DNA of 10,858 nucleotides from a virus. Its lineage: Duplodnaviria; Heunggongvirae; Uroviricota; Caudoviricetes. The DNA lies in IMG/VR virus record IMGVR_UViG_2711768001_000007; one strand, 5' to 3'. The notes beneath the pieces were generated by a model. That model did no database searches. It saw nothing but the letters and a program-made list of their open reading frames with translations, and was not told where the DNA came from. Position 1 is the stretch's first letter; every line of letters begins with the position of its first letter. Of the stretch, positions 185 through 9,960 are shown in pieces. The position numbers and the translations under genes were made by a program.

Positions 185-1423
185 ATGAGCAGCGCAATTC
201 ATAGACTTAGCGACACTCTTTTACGAAAATTAAGCGGATCACCAACCACAAAAAACGCCTTTTTTAATGACGGTGGCAATCTTAGCGTAAGACATTCCAC
301 CAGCGGCCTGTTAACCTGGTATTTCACTTACAGGGCCGGAACTGGCAGGCAGGTATCACCGGAACGCCTGAGACTGGGCAACTATCCCGATCTGAGCCTG
401 AAAGCAGCCAGGGAAAAAGCGGCACAGTGTCGCGCCTGGCTGGCGGAGGGGAAAAATCCACGCCATGAGCTTAATCACACAGTGCAGGAAGCGTTAGCCC
501 CTGTGACGGTTAAGGACGCGCTCACTTACTGGCTTGAGTCGTATGCGAAGGAAAAGCGCACTGACCACGAATCACTGAAAAGCCGTATCAATAAGCACAT
601 AATCAGCCAGATTGGTGCTATGCCGCTGGATAAATGCGAGCTACGCCACTGGCTGGCCTGTTTTGACCAGCTTGCTAAGCGTAATCCGGTATCAGCCGGC
701 TTTTTGTTGCAGGTATGCAAACAGGCGCTTAAGTACTGCCGTAAACGTCGCTACGCCGTCAGTAACGTTCTTGATGATATGGTCGTAGGTGATGTGGGAA
801 AAAAAGCAGAAATAAGCGAGCGAGTGCTAACAAACAAGGAGCTTGGCGAGCTACTCCGCGCACTGGATGAAAAAATTTTCCCGCCGTACTACAGCGCTTT
901 AATTCGCCTTCTGATTGTCTTCGGATGCCGTACCACTGAGCTAAGACGCTCCGAGGTTCGGGAATGGGATTTTAAAGAAATGCTCTGGACTGTGCCGAAA
1001 GAACACAGCAAAACGAAGGTAGCAATATTCAGGCCAATACCGGAAGCGATCTTGCCGTTCGTCATGAAGCTGGTGGAGCAGAACAGGCACACGGGCTTAT
1101 TGCTTGGAGAACTGAAAGGGCAATCATCCGTAGCAGAGTACGGAAGAACGGCACACAGACGCATTAATCAAACCCCCTGGTCGTTGCACGACATCCGGCA
1201 CACATTTACAACCATGCTGAACGATTTAGGCGTGGATCCGCATATTGTCGAACAGCTTACTGCCCACCAGATGCCAGGAATGCAACGCGTCTATAACCAC
1301 TCCCGTTATCTCGATGCAAAGCGTGACGCTCTTAATCTATGGGTAGACCGTCTCGAGCTTCTCCAGAACAATGATGAAAAAATCGTTGTTATGACCCCGC
1401 GAATTTACCCCCAAAATTCTTGA
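185..1423 (+). CDS. int: Site-specific tyrosine integrase, P4-like family
   Basis: 412-aa ORF. N-terminal region has the P4-integrase-like pattern (LSDTLL...FNDGGNLSVRHSTSGLLTWYFTYRAGTGRQ). C-terminal catalytic region carries GCRTTELRR (Arg), HDIRHTF (His-x-x-Arg) and RVYNHSRY (His, Tyr nucleophile). Confidence 0.9.
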   Translation: MSSAIHRLSDTLLRKLSGSPTTKNAFFNDGGNLSVRHSTSGLLTWYFTYRAGTGRQVSPERLRLGNYPDLSLKAAREKAAQCRAWLAEGKNPRHELNHTVQEALAPVTVKDALTYWLESYAKEKRTDHESLKSRINKHIISQIGAMPLDKCELRHWLACFDQLAKRNPVSAGFLLQVCKQALKYCRKRRYAVSNVLDDMVVGDVGKKAEISERVLTNKELGELLRALDEKIFPPYYSALIRLLIVFGCRTTELRRSEVREWDFKEMLWTVPKEHSKTKVAIFRPIPEAILPFVMKLVEQNRHTGLLLGELKGQSSVAEYGRTAHRRINQTPWSLHDIRHTFTTMLNDLGVDPHIVEQLTAHQMPGMQRVYNHSRYLDAKRDALNLWVDRLELLQNNDEKIVVMTPRIYPQNS

Positions 1424-1842: not shown

Positions 1843-2052
1843 ATGCGTGAAATAAATGAAGATCGCGTAATCCGTGAGGATGAATGTCGTAAGTTAACTG
1901 GAGTGTGTCGCACTACACGCTACGAACTGGAGAAAAAAGGGAGCTTTCCGTCTCGCCGTAATCTTGGTGGGCGTTCTGTAGGTTGGCTGCTGTCCGAGGT
2001 TATGGAATGGGTTAAAAGCCGGGATCGCATTAATTCAGGTAAGGCAGCGTAA
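1843..2052 (+). CDS. alpA: AlpA-family (prophage CP4-57 regulatory protein-like) HTH regulator/excisionase
   Basis: 70-aa product from ATG 1843 (RBS-like TAGGT upstream). C-terminal GGRSVGWLLSEVMEWV matches the AlpA pattern (GVKSVGWIEAEIDEWL in E. coli AlpA, from memory). The track ORF begins at GTG 1756, but the N-terminal extension looks non-coding. Confidence 0.7.
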   Translation: MREINEDRVIREDECRKLTGVCRTTRYELEKKGSFPSRRNLGGRSVGWLLSEVMEWVKSRDRINSGKAA

Positions 2053-2166
2053 AGGGGAGCATATGACATATAAAACAAAGACGACCGGGGGCGGTCGCCA
2101 ATGGATACACACTAAACTTGAACGCATCACCAACAATGCCACATTTGCGGCTGGTGGGCAATGTGA

Positions 2167-2340
2167 TCAGTCAGATTTGGTTCGTTCCAAGGTTTGCAAC
2201 GAGAGCTTTTTCCTGTGCTCTTTAAGGAATTTCTCAAGAGCAAAAGCACATGGCGCGAATCTTTCTGATTCATGCTCTATCTTTCTGCGCCGTCTTTTCC
2301 GTGCCGGTGATAATGTTTTGGTCAATTCTTTATCGGTCAT
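2167..2340 (-). CDS. Small basic hypothetical protein (57 aa from Met-6; 62 aa if started at 2355)
   Basis: Minus-strand ORF 57 bp downstream of the RHH gene. AGGA lies 7 nt upstream of the ATG at 2340. Lys/Arg-rich (RKRRRRK). No recognised family. Confidence 0.4.
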   Translation of the reverse strand: MTDKELTKTLSPARKRRRRKIEHESERFAPCAFALEKFLKEHRKKLSLQTLERTKSD

Positions 2341-2397
2341 TGTGTTGTCCTGCATAGCAATGCGCCGTAGTTACTCACACCACGGCGCTGATAGTGA

Positions 2398-2595
2398 TTA
2401 TTCTGATTCTTTGGCCTTCCGGCGCTGTTCATATTTTAATTTGCGTCCACAGGCATCTAAGACCCATGCGGAAAAATTAGCACTAGGATTAGTTAATTTT
2501 TCTTGTTCAACGCTGGCATCAATCCCATCTATAAGCTCATGTGGGAATCGAATATTTTTCTTTGCTGATTTGTTGTTTGTGTTACCGCTAGACAT
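2398..2595 (-). CDS. Ribbon-helix-helix (Arc/MetJ/CopG-like) DNA-binding protein; candidate element repressor
   Basis: 65-aa ORF with strong RBS (GAGGTG 6 nt upstream). Segment IRFPHELIDGIDASVEQEKL...SANFSAWVLDA follows the P22 Arc pattern (FNLRWPREVLDLVRKVAEENGRSVNSEIYQRVMES, from memory). Sits divergently from an operator-bearing promoter region. Confidence 0.6.
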   Translation of the reverse strand: MSSGNTNNKSAKKNIRFPHELIDGIDASVEQEKLTNPSANFSAWVLDACGRKLKYEQRRKAKESE

Positions 2596-2622
2596 TGATG
2601 CACCTCACTTAAATGGACTTTA

Positions 2623-2702
2623 TGGGCGCACACAATACAGCAAAAAAAATGAGATGTTAAGTATTGACATGTGCGCACACATGATTTTAATCTGTGCGCA
2701 CA
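2623..2702. promoter_or_regulatory. Divergent promoter/operator region: TGGGCGCACA (2623-2632), TGTGCGCACA (2670-2679), TGTGCGCACA (2693-2702); rightward promoter -35 TTGACA 2664-2669 / -10 TTTAAT 2686-2691; leftward promoter -35 TGTTAA(rc) 2655-2660 / -10 ACAATA(rc) 2632-2637
   Basis: Two perfect 10-bp palindromes spaced 23 bp centre to centre, plus a 9/10 third copy 47 bp away. They overlap back-to-back sigma70-like hexamers with 16-17 bp spacers. Confidence 0.55.
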
Positions 2703-2800
2703 GTTTGAGTTTTGTCACTCAAATTAAGCAACGCCCCGCAGTGCTCGCAACACATGCAGGGCGTCTAACCACCAACGATAGCAAGAGTATCGAGGTAGCT

Positions 2801-3004
2801 ATGAGAAATCATACCACACACCCGCAAGGGCGGGACTCGCACAACCTGAATAAATATATCTGGCGTTTTATCGCCCTGAGCACGGCACAACCGCGCGTGA
2901 TTACCATTGAGGCCAGCAGCGAACAGGAAGCACGCCAGCAATCCCCGGCTGGCTGCGTGATGGTATTCGCCGCCCGTATTCGTCAGGGGGGGTACCATGC
3001 CTGA
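2801..3004 (+). CDS. Hypothetical small protein (68 aa), first ORF of the rightward early operon
   Basis: ATG 2801 preceded by GAGGT (2792-2796). In frame with the 3' end of the long track ORF 2063-3004. End overlaps the next ORF start. Low confidence. Confidence 0.3.
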   Translation: MRNHTTHPQGRDSHNLNKYIWRFIALSTAQPRVITIEASSEQEARQQSPAGCVMVFAARIRQGGYHA

Positions 3005-3323: not shown

Positions 3324-3623
3324 ATGAGAACGTATTTATCTGGCTTGACTGCCAGCGGTTATGCACACCCCCAAATTATCCCCGGCGCTATTTATCTGGA
3401 TAAGAACGGTAACAGAGTAACGGTAAAAGAACTGATGTTTGACCGTGTGTATTTTATCCGTGATGGCTATTCATTTCTTAGTTCGCTGAACGTGGAGATC
3501 TTTATTTGCAGATTCCGGCGGGAAATCCCGACTTCCAGAAATAACCATGTGTCACGTGTGGATGTGGATAAAAAACTACAGGAACTGAAAAACATGATTG
3601 CCGCGTGGAGAGAGCAGAAATGA
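3324..3623 (+). CDS. Hypothetical protein (99 aa), translationally coupled to the replication gene
   Basis: ORF whose stop overlaps the rep start (ATGA at 3620-3623). No recognised motif. Confidence 0.5.
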   Translation: MRTYLSGLTASGYAHPQIIPGAIYLDKNGNRVTVKELMFDRVYFIRDGYSFLSSLNVEIFICRFRREIPTSRNNHVSRVDVDKKLQELKNMIAAWREQK

Positions 3624-5437
3624 AAAAAGCGCCAAATTTAAAACACCAGCCGCGTGACAAAATGACGGAAGTCATCATTTTTGCGGGTAGTGATGCGTGG
3701 GCACATGCGAAGCAGTGGCAGGAACAGGACGGGCGACTGGCTGGCGATAACGTGCCACCTGTCTGGCTTGGAGAGCAACAACTTGCCGAACTGGACAACC
3801 TGCAAATCGTACCGGATGGACGCTATCGCGTGCGTCTCTACCAGGCGGGGTTATTGCGTCCGGGGCTTGTTAATACCATCGGGCAGAAACTGGCAGCGGC
3901 AGGTGTCAGGGATGCTGATTATTACCCTGAAGGAATGCACAGCCAGAAACGGGAGAACTGGCGCGAATATCTGGAACGTGAGCGGGGAGAGCTGACGGAA
4001 AAGAAAAAGGTAGTTGAACTGCCTGTAAAGAAAAAAGAGCGGGTAAAAGACGATAACGCTTCATCACTGGCGCTTAACCAGATGGGAGCAAGTCAACGCG
4101 GCGAAGTTCTCCTGGCACATTATGGCGGTGAACTGGCGATTCATGCCGACTCTGACACTGTTCACCATTACAACGGCGTTGTATGGGAGCCAGTACAGGA
4201 TAAAGAATTACAGCGAGCTATGGCGCAGATTTTCATTGATGCGGAGATCAGCTATTCGCAGAACGCCATTAAATCGGCGGTCGATACCATGAAGTTAAGT
4301 TTGCCTGTAATGGGGAATACAGCCCGTAACCTGATTGGATTCAGTAACGGGGTATTTGATACCAGAACAGGTAATTTTCGGCAGCATAACAAAAACGACT
4401 GGTTGTTAATTGCCAGTGAATTACCTTTCAGCCCACCAGCAGAGGGGGAAACGCTGGCAACACATGCGCCGAATTTCTGGAAGTGGTTACGCCGTTCGGT
4501 GGCTGAGAATGACCGCAAGGCGGATCGCGTACTGGCTGCATTATTCATGGTGCTGGCGAACCGGTACGACTGGCAGTTATTCATTGAGGTAACAGGTCCA
4601 GGGGGAAGTGGTAAAAGCGTGATGGCGGAGATTTGCACCATGCTGGCGGGTAAGGCTAATACAGTATCAGCGAGCATGAAGGCGCTGGAAGATGCAAGGG
4701 AACGCGCGTTAGTGGTTGGCTTTTCGCTGATTATCATGCCGGATATGACCCGCTACGCTGGTGATGGGGCGGGAATTAAGGCTATTACAGGCGGTGACAA
4801 GGTGGCAATCGACCCAAAACATAAAGCCCCATATTCAACGCGTATCCCGGCAGTAGTGCTGGCGGTTAACAATAACGCTATGTCATTCAGTGACCGCAGT
4901 GGGGGGATCTCGCGCCGTCGGGTGATATTCAATTTTTCGGAAGTTGTACCGGAGAACGAACGCGATTCAATGCTGGCGGAAAAAATAGAAGGTGAGCTGG
5001 CGGTAGTGATTCGTCATCTGCTTACACGGTTTGCTGACCAGGACGAAGCCAGACGCCTTTTATATGAGCAGCAGAAATCAGAAGAAGCACTCGCGATAAA
5101 GCGTGAAGGTGATTCGCTGGTGGACTTCTGCGGCTATCTCATGGCGTCGGTAATGTGTGATGGCCTGTTAGTGGGTAATGCTGAAATTGTGCCATTCAGC
5201 CCGCGCAGGTATCTCTATCATGCCTATCTGGCTTATATGAAGGCACATGGGTTTGGTAAACCTGTAACACTGACGCGCTTCGGTAAAGATATGCCGGGGG
5301 CAATGGCGGAATATGGCAGGGAGTATATGAAACGGAAAACGAAGCACGGTTTGCGTTCAAACGTGACACTGACGGAGGAATCAGAAGACTGGATGCCATC
5401 ATGTGTATCGGTCACTAATGACGATAGCAAAAATTAA
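3620..5437 (+). CDS. Replication initiator: D5_N-like region plus SF3-type P-loop helicase (P4-family primase C-terminal-like)
   Basis: Walker A GPGGSGKS and Walker B-like LIIMPDM. D5_N-like segment IGFSNGVFDTRTGNFRQH...LPFSP. Start taken at ATG 3620 (GGAGAG RBS) rather than GTG 3605. Iteron array begins 14 nt after the stop. Confidence 0.85.
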   Translation: MKKAPNLKHQPRDKMTEVIIFAGSDAWAHAKQWQEQDGRLAGDNVPPVWLGEQQLAELDNLQIVPDGRYRVRLYQAGLLRPGLVNTIGQKLAAAGVRDADYYPEGMHSQKRENWREYLERERGELTEKKKVVELPVKKKERVKDDNASSLALNQMGASQRGEVLLAHYGGELAIHADSDTVHHYNGVVWEPVQDKELQRAMAQIFIDAEISYSQNAIKSAVDTMKLSLPVMGNTARNLIGFSNGVFDTRTGNFRQHNKNDWLLIASELPFSPPAEGETLATHAPNFWKWLRRSVAENDRKADRVLAALFMVLANRYDWQLFIEVTGPGGSGKSVMAEICTMLAGKANTVSASMKALEDARERALVVGFSLIIMPDMTRYAGDGAGIKAITGGDKVAIDPKHKAPYSTRIPAVVLAVNNNAMSFSDRSGGISRRRVIFNFSEVVPENERDSMLAEKIEGELAVVIRHLLTRFADQDEARRLLYEQQKSEEALAIKREGDSLVDFCGYLMASVMCDGLLVGNAEIVPFSPRRYLYHAYLAYMKAHGFGKPVTLTRFGKDMPGAMAEYGREYMKRKTKHGLRSNVTLTEESEDWMPSCVSVTNDDSKN

Positions 5438-6813: not shown

Positions 6814-7023
6814 GTGAGTTGTATTAATGACCTGAACACGGGCGATATCAGGGGTGGTTCCGTTCATCTGGATGCGCAGACCGTTATGCGCCTTAAGCAG
6901 TACAGGATCGACCATATAAATCATCATCCTGACCAACCATTACCAGGTGTGGCGCAGATTGTCAGACATGCCGTAAACACCTGGCTTAATCAGAATGGTT
7001 TTGCATCGGTGGGGGAACAATGA
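6814..7023 (+). CDS. Hypothetical small protein (69 aa), possibly RHH-like, translationally coupled to the protease-capsid gene
   Basis: GTG start 6814 with strong RBS AAGAGGA (6800-6806). Stop overlaps capsid start (ATGA 7020-7023). RHH assignment is a guess from a beta-strand then two-helix pattern. Confidence 0.45.
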   Translation: MSCINDLNTGDIRGGSVHLDAQTVMRLKQYRIDHINHHPDQPLPGVAQIVRHAVNTWLNQNGFASVGEQ

Positions 7024-8933
7024 ATCGCTGGTACACCATTAAGGCGGCGGATGTTCGCGGAGCGGCGGATATATCTATCTATGAGGAGATTGGCGGCTTC
7101 GGTGTTACTGCAAAGCAGTTCGCGGAAGACCTGAAAGCCCTTGGCGATGTTTCACATATCAATCTGAGGATCCATTCACCAGGTGGTGATGTGTTTGAAG
7201 GCATCGCCATCTATAACCTGCTACGGAATCATCCGGCAGACATTACGGTTTATATCGATGGTGTTGCGGCTTCAATGGCTTCGGTGGTCGCAATGGCTGG
7301 CGATCGTGTTGTGATGCCGGAAAACGCCATGATGATGATACATAAGCCGTGGGGTATCTCTGGCGGAAATGCTGGTGATATGCGTGATTATGCTGATTTG
7401 CTGGATAAGGTGGAAACCGTGTTAGTCCCTGCTTATGCCAGAAAAACGGGCAAATCAGCACAGGAAATTACCGCCATGCTGGAAGATGAAACCTGGATGG
7501 ACGGGAAAGAATGCCTTAAGCACGGTTTTGCTGATGAATTGTTGCCATCCGTCAGAGCAATGGCGCGAATTGAATCGAAGCGCACAGGAGATTTTTTACA
7601 TATGCCGGAAACCATTAAAGGAATGATTACACCGCCACAGGGAGCGGCAAATATTGCTGGTAATGAACAGAAACGCATCAATGGAATAAGTGAAGTGTTT
7701 AGCCTGTTCGGCAGTCGTTACGACGGGATCAAAATGGCGTGTCTGGAAGATGCATCATGTACACCGGAAATGGCCCGTGAAAAGCTGTTGAACGAGCTGG
7801 GGCGCGAGTCCACGCCATCCAATAAAAATACCCCGGCTCATATCTATGCCGGAAACGGAAACATAACAGGTGATGCAATTCGTCAGGGGCTTTATTCCCG
7901 TCTTGGGTATGAACGGCCTGAACGAGGCAACCCTTACGCGATGATGAGTCTTTTTGAAATGGCCCAGGCATCACTGGTTGATCGTGGTATCACTGTGAGC
8001 GGTTTTATTAATCGCTCGCAGGTTGTTAATGCGGCTTTTACACACAGCAGCAGTGATTTTTCTCATATTCTGGCTGGTGGGGCTGAAAAATCTGTACTGA
8101 AAGGCTGGCAGGACAGCGGCGAAACGTTCCAGAAATGGACGCGTACCGGTTCGCTTTCAAACTTTCATGAAGCAAAGCGCGTTGGTCTGAATGGTTTTTC
8201 AAAGCTGGATAAAGTACCGGAAGGTGCGGAATATAAATACATCACCACCAGCGATAAAGGTGTACCTATTGCGCTGGCCACGTACGGGAATATATTTTCC
8301 GTTACCCGTCAGGCCATTATCAACGATGACCTGACCCAGTTAACTACAATCCCCATGGCGATGGGACGCGCAGCTGCCAGAACAGTTGGCAATCTGGTTT
8401 ATCTCCTGTTAACCAGCAACGGCAAGTTTACGGATGGTAAAGCGTTATTCCATGCCGATCATAAAAATCTTATTGCGAAGGATATGGACATGGAGGGGCT
8501 TAACGAAGCCCGTAAGCTGATGCGCCTCCAGGAAGACGCTAACGGCGATTCGCTGAATATTACCCCTGCATTTGTCCTGGTCCCCGCCGCGCTGGAGTCT
8601 GCCGCACATCGCGCCATTCTGTCATCGTCATCACTCTTTCCGGTTGATGGCGTGGGCACTATCAATCAGAACCCCGGCATCATTAACGTGGTGAAAGATA
8701 TGGCGGAGGTAATCGTTGAGCCACGTCTTGATAAAGCCAATAACAAGGAGTGGTATGTGGCAGCGGCGAAGGGTATGGACACGATAGAGGTCGCTTATCT
8801 TGATGGTATTGATACGCCATATCTTGAGGAGCAGGAGGGCTTTACTGTTGATGGCGTCGCCTGGAAGGTGCGCATAGATGCAGGTGTCGCGGCCCTCGAC
8901 TATCGCGGATTACTGAAATCGAGTGGAGCATGA
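7020..8933 (+). CDS. Fusion protein: N-terminal ClpP-family prohead protease plus C-terminal probable phage major capsid protein
   Basis: N-terminal ~190 aa align with ClpP: IHSPGGDV vs INSPGGVI, GVAASMAS vs GQAASMGA (catalytic Ser), MIHKPW vs MIHQP (catalytic His). The C-terminal ~440 aa have capsid-like character (ending ...GVAALDYRG); that part is a judgement call. Confidence 0.8.
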   Translation: MNRWYTIKAADVRGAADISIYEEIGGFGVTAKQFAEDLKALGDVSHINLRIHSPGGDVFEGIAIYNLLRNHPADITVYIDGVAASMASVVAMAGDRVVMPENAMMMIHKPWGISGGNAGDMRDYADLLDKVETVLVPAYARKTGKSAQEITAMLEDETWMDGKECLKHGFADELLPSVRAMARIESKRTGDFLHMPETIKGMITPPQGAANIAGNEQKRINGISEVFSLFGSRYDGIKMACLEDASCTPEMAREKLLNELGRESTPSNKNTPAHIYAGNGNITGDAIRQGLYSRLGYERPERGNPYAMMSLFEMAQASLVDRGITVSGFINRSQVVNAAFTHSSSDFSHILAGGAEKSVLKGWQDSGETFQKWTRTGSLSNFHEAKRVGLNGFSKLDKVPEGAEYKYITTSDKGVPIALATYGNIFSVTRQAIINDDLTQLTTIPMAMGRAAARTVGNLVYLLLTSNGKFTDGKALFHADHKNLIAKDMDMEGLNEARKLMRLQEDANGDSLNITPAFVLVPAALESAAHRAILSSSSLFPVDGVGTINQNPGIINVVKDMAEVIVEPRLDKANNKEWYVAAAKGMDTIEVAYLDGIDTPYLEEQEGFTVDGVAWKVRIDAGVAALDYRGLLKSSGA

Positions 8934-8937
8934 CAAC

Positions 8938-8963
8938 AAGGGCGGCGATAGCCGCCTTTTTTT
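8938..8963 (+). terminator. GC hairpin plus T-run after the capsid gene; terminator-like, and also contains a 9-nt match to lambda cosN
   Basis: Stem GGCGGC (8941-8946) / GCCGCC (8951-8956), loop GATA, T-run 8957-8963. GGGCGGCGA (8940-8948) matches the first 9 nt of lambda cosN GGGCGGCGACCT as I recall it. Confidence 0.5.
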
Positions 8964-9035
8964 ACGGGTCCTCCCGGTGGGGTGGTCTGCCACGGGGCGG
9001 GAGCGGCGCGGAAAAAGGCTAGTTTTTGCATTTTC
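8964..9035 (+). repeat. Conserved ~70-bp element, copy 2 (about 92% identical to 6429-6497)
   Basis: See copy 1. Same position relative to a GC hairpin plus T-run. Confidence 0.7.
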
Positions 9036-9190
9036 ATTCGTCATCATCATCTTTCTATAATGTTGAATTTTAAGTGTTTTTATTTTTGGTATGTTAATTT
9101 TGCTTATTTTGTGTTCAACATACAGCGCGTTTTTTGACCTTTTTTAAAAGATATTTGCAAGATGCATTTTTAAAACATTCTGGAGCGGGT

Positions 9191-9676
9191 ATGGATCGGG
9201 AACTGAAAAATCTGATGCTGAACATTAACCAGCTGGCGGCGATAGCGGGAATATGTCGCCAGACTGCGGCGGCAAGGCTGAAAAATATCCAGCCAGCCGG
9301 AGGACATGACAAGCTGAAACTCTATCGGGTGACTGACATTCTGACTTGTTTTCTTGATCTTCCCGTTCCGGCATCACTGGAAGAAATGGAGCCACACGAC
9401 CGTAAGGCCTGGTATCAGTCCGAACGTGAGCGCCTCAAGTTCGAACAGGAAACGGCGCAACTCATACCCGCCGATGATGTGCGAAAAGAGATGGCTATAT
9501 GGGGAGAAATCGTAAGCGAGGAACTGGAAAAACTCCCCAGTATTCTGGCACGTGATGTTGGGCTTAAACCGATGGCAGTAAACAGAGTGCAGTCAATTAT
9601 TGACGATTTGTGTAATCAGATTATCAGCCGGATGGTAAAAAATGACGTAGTGAATGAGGTCGCAAAACAGGCATGA
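9191..9676 (+). CDS. Terminase small subunit, lambda Nu1-like
   Basis: From ATG 9191 (GGAG RBS 9183-9186). NQLAAIAGICRQTAAARLKNIQPAGGHDKLKLYRVTDIL parallels lambda Nu1 KKQLADIFGASIRTIQNWQEQGMPVLRGGGKGNEVLYDSAAVI (from memory). The track ORF starts at TTG 9134, which I consider less likely. Confidence 0.7.
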   Translation: MDRELKNLMLNINQLAAIAGICRQTAAARLKNIQPAGGHDKLKLYRVTDILTCFLDLPVPASLEEMEPHDRKAWYQSERERLKFEQETAQLIPADDVRKEMAIWGEIVSEELEKLPSILARDVGLKPMAVNRVQSIIDDLCNQIISRMVKNDVVNEVAKQA

Positions 9677-9960
9677 TAATGACCGAATCTGAAATACTGC
9701 GATTAATCCGCTGTGCTGGTGGAATTAGCCAGTTGGCTGACGAACAGGCCGCGCAGCCGGATACAGTCACCGCTGAAAATTACGCGCGTGTGGTGGCTGA
9801 GGTGATGCGCCGTGACGGTATTGAGCTTAACGGCGTGGATATGCGCAACATACGAACCAGAGTCCTTGAGTTGCTGGCATACCGTCGCCGTTCTCAACAA
9901 CGGAGGGAGAGCGCGAAAAATACTTACCAGTGGAAGAAGCCGGAACGGTTGCAGCGGTAG
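9673..9960 (+). CDS. Hypothetical 95-aa protein with weak resemblance to the N-terminal Nu1-binding segment of lambda large terminase gpA
   Basis: ATGA overlap with the terS-like gene, as Nu1 and A overlap in lambda. SEILRLIRCAGGISQLADEQAAQPDTVTAENY vs gpA SQVNRLRHFVRAGLRSLFRPEPQTAVEWADANY. Similarity ends after ~40 aa and the ORF stops at 95 aa. Confidence 0.45.
   Translation: MIMTESEILRLIRCAGGISQLADEQAAQPDTVTAENYARVVAEVMRRDGIELNGVDMRNIRTRVLELLAYRRRSQQRRESAKNTYQWKKPERLQR

Follow-up and report, generated by a model that had tools for sequence, protein, structure and literature searches.

We analysed a stretch of viral DNA of 10,858 nucleotides (hereafter, the window) from the IMG/VR record IMGVR_UViG_2711768001_000007 (Caudoviricetes), which its sequence identifies as an int-alpA-primase-capsid satellite island of E. 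coli. Between the leftward gene ylcI, encoding a 65-aa protein of the YlcI/YnfO family (DUF3950), and a rightward replication operon that opens with an Icd-like gene, this island carries a set of TGTGCGCACA palindromes that, judging from comparative analysis, very probably serve as binding sites for a small ribbon-helix-helix (RHH) repressor silencing the replication operon. We assign a probability of roughly 0.78 to the combined reading in which the palindromes are operators of YlcI and the operon is subject both to transcriptional repression and to translational control by a predicted antisense RNA.

The repeat of the palindrome is real and non-random. An earlier, sequence-only reading of the window had noted two perfect palindromes and a third copy with one mismatch, and a scan of the whole window recovered all three at exactly these places: TGTGCGCACA is perfect at 2670-2679 and 2693-2702, and TGGGCGCACA, a 9/10 match, lies at 2623-2632. 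These are the only matches to TGTGCGCACA with at most one mismatch in the 10,858 bp, compared with a mean of 0.47 in shuffled windows, of which 3 of 200 contained at least three; when two mismatches were allowed, extra matches appeared elsewhere at chance level only. A motif-free test, using 3000 first-order Markov simulations of the window as the null, gave any perfect 10-bp palindrome repeated at most 100 bp apart in 0.23% of the simulations.

These sites define three predicted operators, O1, O2 and O3 (Table 1), and their placement on two back-to-back promoters is as the sequence-only reading had described it. The -35 hexamers of the predicted rightward (PR) and leftward (PL) promoters are separated by 3 bp, with an A-rich tract upstream of PR at 2643-2650. 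O1 occupies the PR spacer, and O2, with its centre 23 bp from that of O1, covers the final two bases of the PR -10 along with the predicted start near 2700. O3 abuts or overlaps the PL -10 and covers the predicted leftward start. As read from the sequence, the positions of O1 and O2 are occlusive for RNA polymerase, and the overlap of the sites with core elements of the promoters that they would control (O1 and O2 on PR, O3 on PL) is a feature of immunity modules. The consensus promoter scanner that found PL missed the PR pair, the support for which is conservation of the TAnnnT spacing across loci.

This conservation emerged from an alignment of 27 homologues of the 65-aa protein, which was used to fetch 37 loci from one-genome-per-species contigs representing Serratia, Rahnella, Klebsiella, Pectobacterium, Enterobacter, Xenorhabdus, Pantoea, Brenneria, Proteus, Morganella, Arsenophonus, Erwinia, Gilliamella and other genera. 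The layout recurs in these loci, and the three sites keep fixed positions relative to both promoters in many genera. A TTGAC -35 element is present in 37 of 38 loci, followed directly on its 3' side by O1, a 12-mer of the form GTG-N6-CAC. O2 is found 23 bp downstream of O1 in 33/38 loci, and 33/38 also have a TAnnnT -10 at an 18-nt spacer, with its end bases overlapping O2. O3, on average a more degenerate site than O2, is positioned 46-47 bp upstream of O1 in 24/37 loci; in most related loci, a TATnGT hexamer on the opposite strand directly abuts it. Five loci with a longer intergenic region (L011, L016, L021, L022 and L036) have an apparent extra, fourth site 24 bp upstream of O1, between O3 and O1. 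A hairpin comparable to the one predicted at the 5' end of the PR transcript in the window is found at the equivalent place in L002-L038, in many cases built with the right half of O2 (CACC...GGTG).

The central hexamer, in contrast to the layout, varies by element: TGCGCA in the window is replaced by TATATG, TTTAAA, GGTGCA, TACCCC, TGGCCG or TCTACA in others. O1 and O2 nevertheless resemble each other within a locus, with a mean of 1.4 mismatches per 12 positions versus 4.0/12 between loci. In L013 and L026, the centre is asymmetric, and O1 and O2 are mutually inverted, which argues that the sites are protein-recognition units rather than hairpins.

Comparison across the loci shows that the operator type follows residues 2-15 of YlcI, and not the rest of YlcI, the Icd-like gene or AlpA. 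Operator distance correlated with distance in YlcI residues 2-15 (Mantel r=0.64, p<=2e-4) and showed no such relationship with YlcI residues 16-58 (r=0.03) or with the Icd-like protein (r=0.03). A near-identical Icd-like gene stands behind three operator types (L016, L030 and L034), and the operator type of the window precedes four Icd-like types; likewise, the AlpA of L010, which shares the operator of the window, is 34% identical to that of the window, compared with 56% for L006, which has a different operator. Within YlcI, the per-column association with operator class was strongest for residues 12 (z 10.1) and 14 (z 7.0), with residues 5, 11 and 6 next in order, whereas comparably variable columns in the helices and tail reached z of at most 3. 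R16 is invariant, and residues 12, 14 and 16 alternate so as to form one face of a predicted beta-strand. Arc, MetJ and CopG, all RHH proteins, read DNA through alternating residues on such a face. The pairs at residues 12 and 14 can be matched to operator centres as a putative code: K/N with TGCGCA; T/G with TATATG- or TTTGTG-type centres; Y/G with TTTAAA; K/H and K/A with GGTnCA; and Q/K or T/K with TACCCC or TGGCCG. This code would predict that a K12T/N14G variant of YlcI prefers GTGTATATGCAC-type sites and that the reverse swap has the opposite effect. A joint change of specificity in repressor and operators between elements, as seen here, is a further feature of immunity modules.

YlcI belongs to the YlcI/YnfO family by its scores against PF13132 (28.3 bits, cut-off 25) and NF041551 (59 bits, cut-off 30), and it models as an RHH fold, with a beta-strand followed by two helices. 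The closest structural matches of the model are the RHH antitoxins TacA and ParD; YlcI consists of the RHH domain only, without a C-terminal toxin-binding extension. The role of residues 12 and 14 and of the invariant R16 in reading bases is suggested through co-variation only.

In addition to the operators, the region carries a conserved, predicted antisense RNA on the minus strand that goes beyond what the sequence-only reading had seen. Downstream of O2, all loci have a leader of ~100 nt with two hairpins. In one and the same alignment, the alifold energy was -28.7 kcal/mol for the minus strand versus -10.3 kcal/mol for the plus strand, standard pairs filled 96.8% versus 84.5% of the pair cells, and G.U cells numbered 91 versus 4, all indicating that the structure belongs to the minus strand. 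On these same grounds of pairing, G.U content and alifold energy, we rejected a functional plus-strand leader RNA (c4-like or a translational attenuator). Compensatory changes affect 18/23 of the minus-strand pairs, a level reached by 0/500 shuffles and far from that of slid registers, and a U-rich tail follows the 3' hairpin on the minus strand only. The predicted -10 element of the antisense promoter, inside the Icd-like coding sequence, is represented in 36/38 loci by a minus-strand TAnnnT, after which come exactly 7 nt and then an invariant A, and it is kept despite differences in the encoded amino acids, its invariant T being a wobble base.

A covariance model built without the window gave a single match when scanned against it, covering 2722-2800 on the minus strand at full length (66.9 bits, E 6e-13), and one match each in loci outside the training set, including vB_KppS-Ant and three further E. 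coli islands. In the window, the RNA has a minimum free energy of -37.3 kcal/mol (z -5.1) and is complementary to the 5' untranslated region (UTR) and the Shine-Dalgarno sequence (GAGG, 2792-2795) of the Icd-like gene. The locus is present in 1576 of 5426 complete E. coli genomes (~29%). Searching Rfam with the whole window returned only a chance match to a long non-coding RNA, and searching with the region alone returned sub-threshold matches only and no family for the antisense RNA; the best of these, SymR (RF01809), reached 20.8 bits (E 0.07) against a gathering score of 61. The Rfam C4 and CI antisense RNAs had no match in the window at E<=1, nor in 2596-2830 at E<=10, and no account of an antisense RNA linked to Icd emerged from literature searches.

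Other readings of the palindromes have to be weighed against YlcI operators. Another regulator encoded by the element, namely AlpA, the Icd-like protein or the primase, might be the binder. The Icd-like protein does match phrog_6196 and phrog_1743, both labelled transcriptional repressor, and AlpA is an established activator of gene expression in the phage-inducible chromosomal islands (PICIs) of E. coli and other Gram-negative bacteria (PMC6092414), a point that also counts against YlcI as the regulator in charge. Neither the sequence of the Icd-like protein nor the identity of AlpA tracks operator type, however, and sites within a promoter spacer and over a -10 and start suit repression rather than activation, so that we regard such a binder as improbable. 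Still less probable, in our estimate, is that the sites are targets of a host factor or structural elements, such as a cruciform, a terminator-like hairpin or origin iterons. A scanner does call CATGTGCGCACACATG with its T-run at 2668-2683 terminator-like, and P4-family primases bind short repeats at origins. Yet in most loci the sites keep, to the base, the same register with the -35 and -10, as expected of operators and not of iterons, and the inverted, non-palindromic sites of L013 and L026 rule out the need for a hairpin. Within the single host species E. coli, moreover, the sites differ, being TGTGCGCACA in the window, GTGGGCCACACC in L040 and of the TAAGCCAC type in L041, which argues against a single host factor.

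A third possibility keeps YlcI as the binder and makes it an antitoxin-like autoregulator of ylcI and of the small, basic 62-aa open reading frame (ORF) that follows it, with any effect on the rightward operon being incidental. The structural resemblance to TacA and ParD speaks for it, as does the recurrence of the 62-aa ORF in the E. coli island L042 (2034-2222). None of the 37 loci from other species has this ORF, whereas O1 and O2 over PR are conserved there; furthermore, YlcI has no toxin-binding extension, and the two best sites are on PR, not PL. For want of conservation outside E. coli, we rejected the 62-aa ORF as a toxin partner of YlcI and consider this alternative, too, to be very unlikely.

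Several observations weigh against the reading of YlcI as the repressor. The loci are related and hence are non-independent samples. The PL -35 is weak and variable across loci, and the -35 of the antisense promoter is poor in many of them. The fold call rests on a monomer model of medium confidence (predicted local distance difference test, pLDDT, 74); YlcI matched none of the Pfam RHH families at E<=0.01, and a sequence search of the PDB with the YlcI family profile found no match at E<=10. Codons 2-15 are only 30-70 bp from O3, so that part of the co-variation comes from their being physically linked in recombination cassettes, yet the remainder of ylcI shows none. The comparative evidence for the repressor reading is strong, and its support is computational only.

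Sequence analysis shows where the sites lie, how they co-vary with YlcI, its modelled fold, the structure of the RNA and the conservation of the promoters. From this we infer a regulatory scheme that covers YlcI binding to the sites, the direction of regulation, autoregulation, what the RNA does and derepression by a helper phage. YlcI dimers would bind the three sites, with beta-strand residues 12, 14 and 16 reading the central six bp. Given their positions, YlcI on O1 (the spacer) and O2 (the -10 and start) would exclude RNA polymerase from PR and thereby keep the Icd-like/DUF4222/primase operon silent. O3, the weaker match over the PL start, would be occupied last and limit repressor synthesis at high YlcI. 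The back-to-back geometry suggests that two polymerases probably compete and that repression of PR may favour PL. Differing repressor/operator cassettes would act as immunity types between elements. At a second level, the constitutively promoted RNA of ~79 nt (2800 to 2722) would pair with the 5' UTR and Shine-Dalgarno sequence and block translation of the Icd-like gene; by translational coupling and polarity, as in P1 immI, this probably reduces expression of the replication genes downstream as well.

Two further steps are speculative. Read-through of the antisense terminator might add transcription into ylcI. Also, AlpA, if induced by a helper phage, might drive alpA transcription through ylcI, in the antisense direction, and override the lock at PR. 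The hairpin at 2080-2099, which separates alpA from the leftward genes, offers no T-run to rightward transcripts from alpA; because this sole T-run hairpin (2099 to 2080) faces the opposite way, such transcripts meet no rightward terminator before PR and could therefore override the lock.

All parts of the sequence-only reading hold up in this comparison, with some qualifications. Its assignment of the 65-aa protein to the RHH fold agrees with the structure model and with the co-variation between the sites and the predicted DNA-reading residues, and the rightward operon does run into a primase. What it called an immunity switch holds as a repressor/operator module with probable autoregulation. 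A bistable switch is not demonstrated, since no Cro-like antagonist was recognised among the rightward genes, and the Icd-like protein, for all its PHROG label of transcriptional repressor, does not co-vary with the operators. Similarly, the proposed leftward repressor operon does contain the repressor gene, but it consists essentially of ylcI alone, the 62-aa ORF being unconserved outside E. coli.

The proposed mechanism, an RHH repressor combined with an antisense RNA, is of a known kind, with P22 immI and pMV158 as precedents, while the protein family is uncharacterised and the RNA undescribed. P22 immI comprises the RHH repressors Mnt and Arc, the divergent promoters Pant and Pmnt, and the sar antisense RNA. 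The two systems are alike in having a small RHH repressor divergent from the controlled operon, back-to-back promoters with operators over the -10 and start, and a short cis-antisense RNA over the ribosome-binding site of a gene of that operon. They differ in that P22 has two RHH proteins of known Pfam families, operators of 17 and 21 bp and an antirepressor under control, whereas the island has one DUF3950 protein, three predicted 12-bp sites spaced 23 and 47 bp, a satellite replication operon and an antisense promoter inside the first gene. Copy control of pMV158 involves the RHH repressor CopG and antisense RNA II, which acts on repB. There, too, replication genes are doubly controlled, by an RHH repressor on a short pseudo-palindrome and by an antisense RNA that blocks translation, but copG shares a transcript with repB instead of being divergent, only one operator is present, the replicon is a plasmid rather than an integrated satellite, and no sequence relationship was detected.

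The immI locus of P1 and P7 has the order c4 RNA, icd, ant, and P4 immunity depends on the CI RNA; in P1, blocked translation of icd switches off the downstream genes by polarity. As in these phages, an Icd-family gene is the first reading frame in the island, and its translation is the predicted target of a small RNA. In contrast, c4 and CI arise by processing of same-strand transcripts and use short complementary boxes, whereas the RNA described here appears to be a true cis-antisense transcript. The SymR RNA of SymR/SymE is, similarly, a two-domain antisense RNA of ~77 nt starting beside the start codon of its target and aligns at full length to 2800-2727 on the minus strand, but the score is sub-threshold, making the RNA of the island a non-member, and the target here is Icd-like, not SymE. 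Stl proteins are larger helix-turn-helix proteins, unlike the small RHH protein predicted here. Gram-positive PICIs, the staphylococcal pathogenicity islands (SaPIs), have Stl or Rpr as master repressors, of which Stl is inactivated by helper-phage proteins, and share with the island a repressor divergent from the satellite excision and replication operon (PMC6092414).

The same module is present, unannotated, in vB_KppS-Ant (L039). This record of an induced prophage contains genes for integrase, primase, capsid, portal and terminase, and we interpret it as a capsid-forming PICI. Elsewhere in E. coli, islands carry variant YlcI proteins together with different operators: GTGGGCCACACC in L040 and the TAAGCCAC type in L041. 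In the O157:H7 island L042, the same place is taken by a different, unannotated 57-aa gene with an RHH-like pattern and two ATGGTAATTACC repeats, followed downstream by the same antisense RNA; Pfam, hhalign and PDB sequence searches failed to show an RHH domain in the 57-aa protein. With such variants preceding the same RNA, the repressor/operator unit behaves in these sequences as an exchangeable cassette ahead of a conserved RNA/Icd-like unit.

According to a study from 2018 on these islands, no repressor had been found, and our literature searches yielded neither a function for YlcI/YnfO nor a repressor for capsid-forming PICIs or for these satellites. We tentatively suggest, at slightly less than even odds, that small and often unannotated RHH genes like ylcI are the missing master repressors of Gram-negative PICIs and capsid-forming PICIs, carried in exchangeable immunity-type cassettes before an antisense RNA that gates the Icd-like/replication operon. 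If so, helper-phage induction would override a double lock, for instance through AlpA-driven read-through across ylcI or a phage antirepressor. The analysis offers a testable candidate repressor for Gram-negative satellites from a family without an assigned function, a readable specificity code that relates residues 12 and 14 to the operator centre, and a new predicted antisense RNA in ~29% of complete E. coli genomes; candidate, code and RNA could all serve to engineer or derepress satellites.

Phage lambda also encodes a YlcI/YnfO homologue (~43% identity), as do many lambdoid and Stx phages, near cos and close to the right end. In lambda it lies at 48142-48303 on the minus strand of J02459.1 and is unannotated in this classic record.

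The 800 bp around the palindromes match the E. coli STN0717-20 chromosome with 100% identity; in that genome, the window corresponds to an island of ~10.5 kb flanked by cspD/yljB and clpS, and fragments of this 800-bp region were found in 1668 of 5426 complete E. coli genomes. With int, alpA and the primase gene co-oriented at the left end, the gene order is, by sequence, that of Gram-negative PICIs with a reduced capsid module. This module (7020-9960) consists of a protease/capsid fusion, a DUF1441 TerS-like protein and a 95-aa ORF; portal, large terminase and head-tail genes are absent from it, so that it falls short of the full capsid-forming set, which vB_KppS-Ant does have. The convergent arrangement of alpA and ylcI is shared by 21 related loci.

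Table 1. Coordinates of predicted regulatory features and genes in the window.
Feature	Position	Strand	Details
O1 operator, predicted	2669-2680		ATGTGCGCACAC; perfect 10-bp palindrome at 2670-2679; fills the PR -35/-10 spacer
O2 operator, predicted	2692-2703		CTGTGCGCACAG; perfect 12-bp palindrome
O3 operator, predicted, weaker	2622-2633		ATGGGCGCACAC; 9/10 of core palindrome at 2623-2632
Rightward promoter PR, predicted	2664-2693	+	-35 TTGACA 2664-2669; 18-nt spacer; -10 TAATCT 2688-2693
Leftward promoter PL, predicted	2632-2660	-	-35 TTAACA 2660 to 2655; 17 nt; -10 TATTGT 2637 to 2632; consensus scan
Short hairpin at 5' end of predicted PR transcript	2704-2723	+	TTTGAGT...ACTCAAA
Cis-antisense RNA, predicted, ~79 nt	2722-2800 (2800 to 2722)	-	5' domain 2800-2767; terminator hairpin 2765-2730; U-rich tail
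Antisense-RNA promoter -10, predicted	2808-2813 (2813 to 2808)	-	TATGAT with TGG extended -10; inside Icd-like codons 3-5
ylcI-type gene, 65-aa YlcI/YnfO (DUF3950), predicted RHH repressor	2398-2595	-	Shine-Dalgarno GAGGTG 2606 to 2601
Icd-like gene, 67 aa, first of rightward operon	2801-3004	+	NCBIfam phage_ICD_like (NF033153), 69.6 bits, cut-off 25
P4-family primase	3605-5437	+	
SSB gene	downstream of primase		
Tyrosine integrase (int)	185-1423		
alpA, AlpA-family regulator	1843-2052	+	Pfam Phage_AlpA, 59.2 bits; convergent with ylcI
Terminator-like hairpin with T-run	2080-2099	-	stops leftward transcription
Basic 62-aa ORF behind ylcI	2355 to 2167	-	phrog_21027; not annotated in RefSeq
ClpP-protease/major-capsid fusion	7020-8933		
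DUF1441 TerS-like protein	within 7020-9960		

The rightward operon has the order Icd-like gene, 106-aa ORF, DUF4222 and P4-family primase, with the stop of the Icd-like gene overlapping the start of the next ORF (2997). RefSeq puts the Icd-like start at 2654, within the operator region, and a 313-aa ORF spans 2063-3004. We read both as artefacts because they cross the operators and the RNA, whereas related loci have a conserved Shine-Dalgarno sequence and ATG at the position equivalent to 2801. The 313-aa ORF also passes through ylcI, on the opposite strand.
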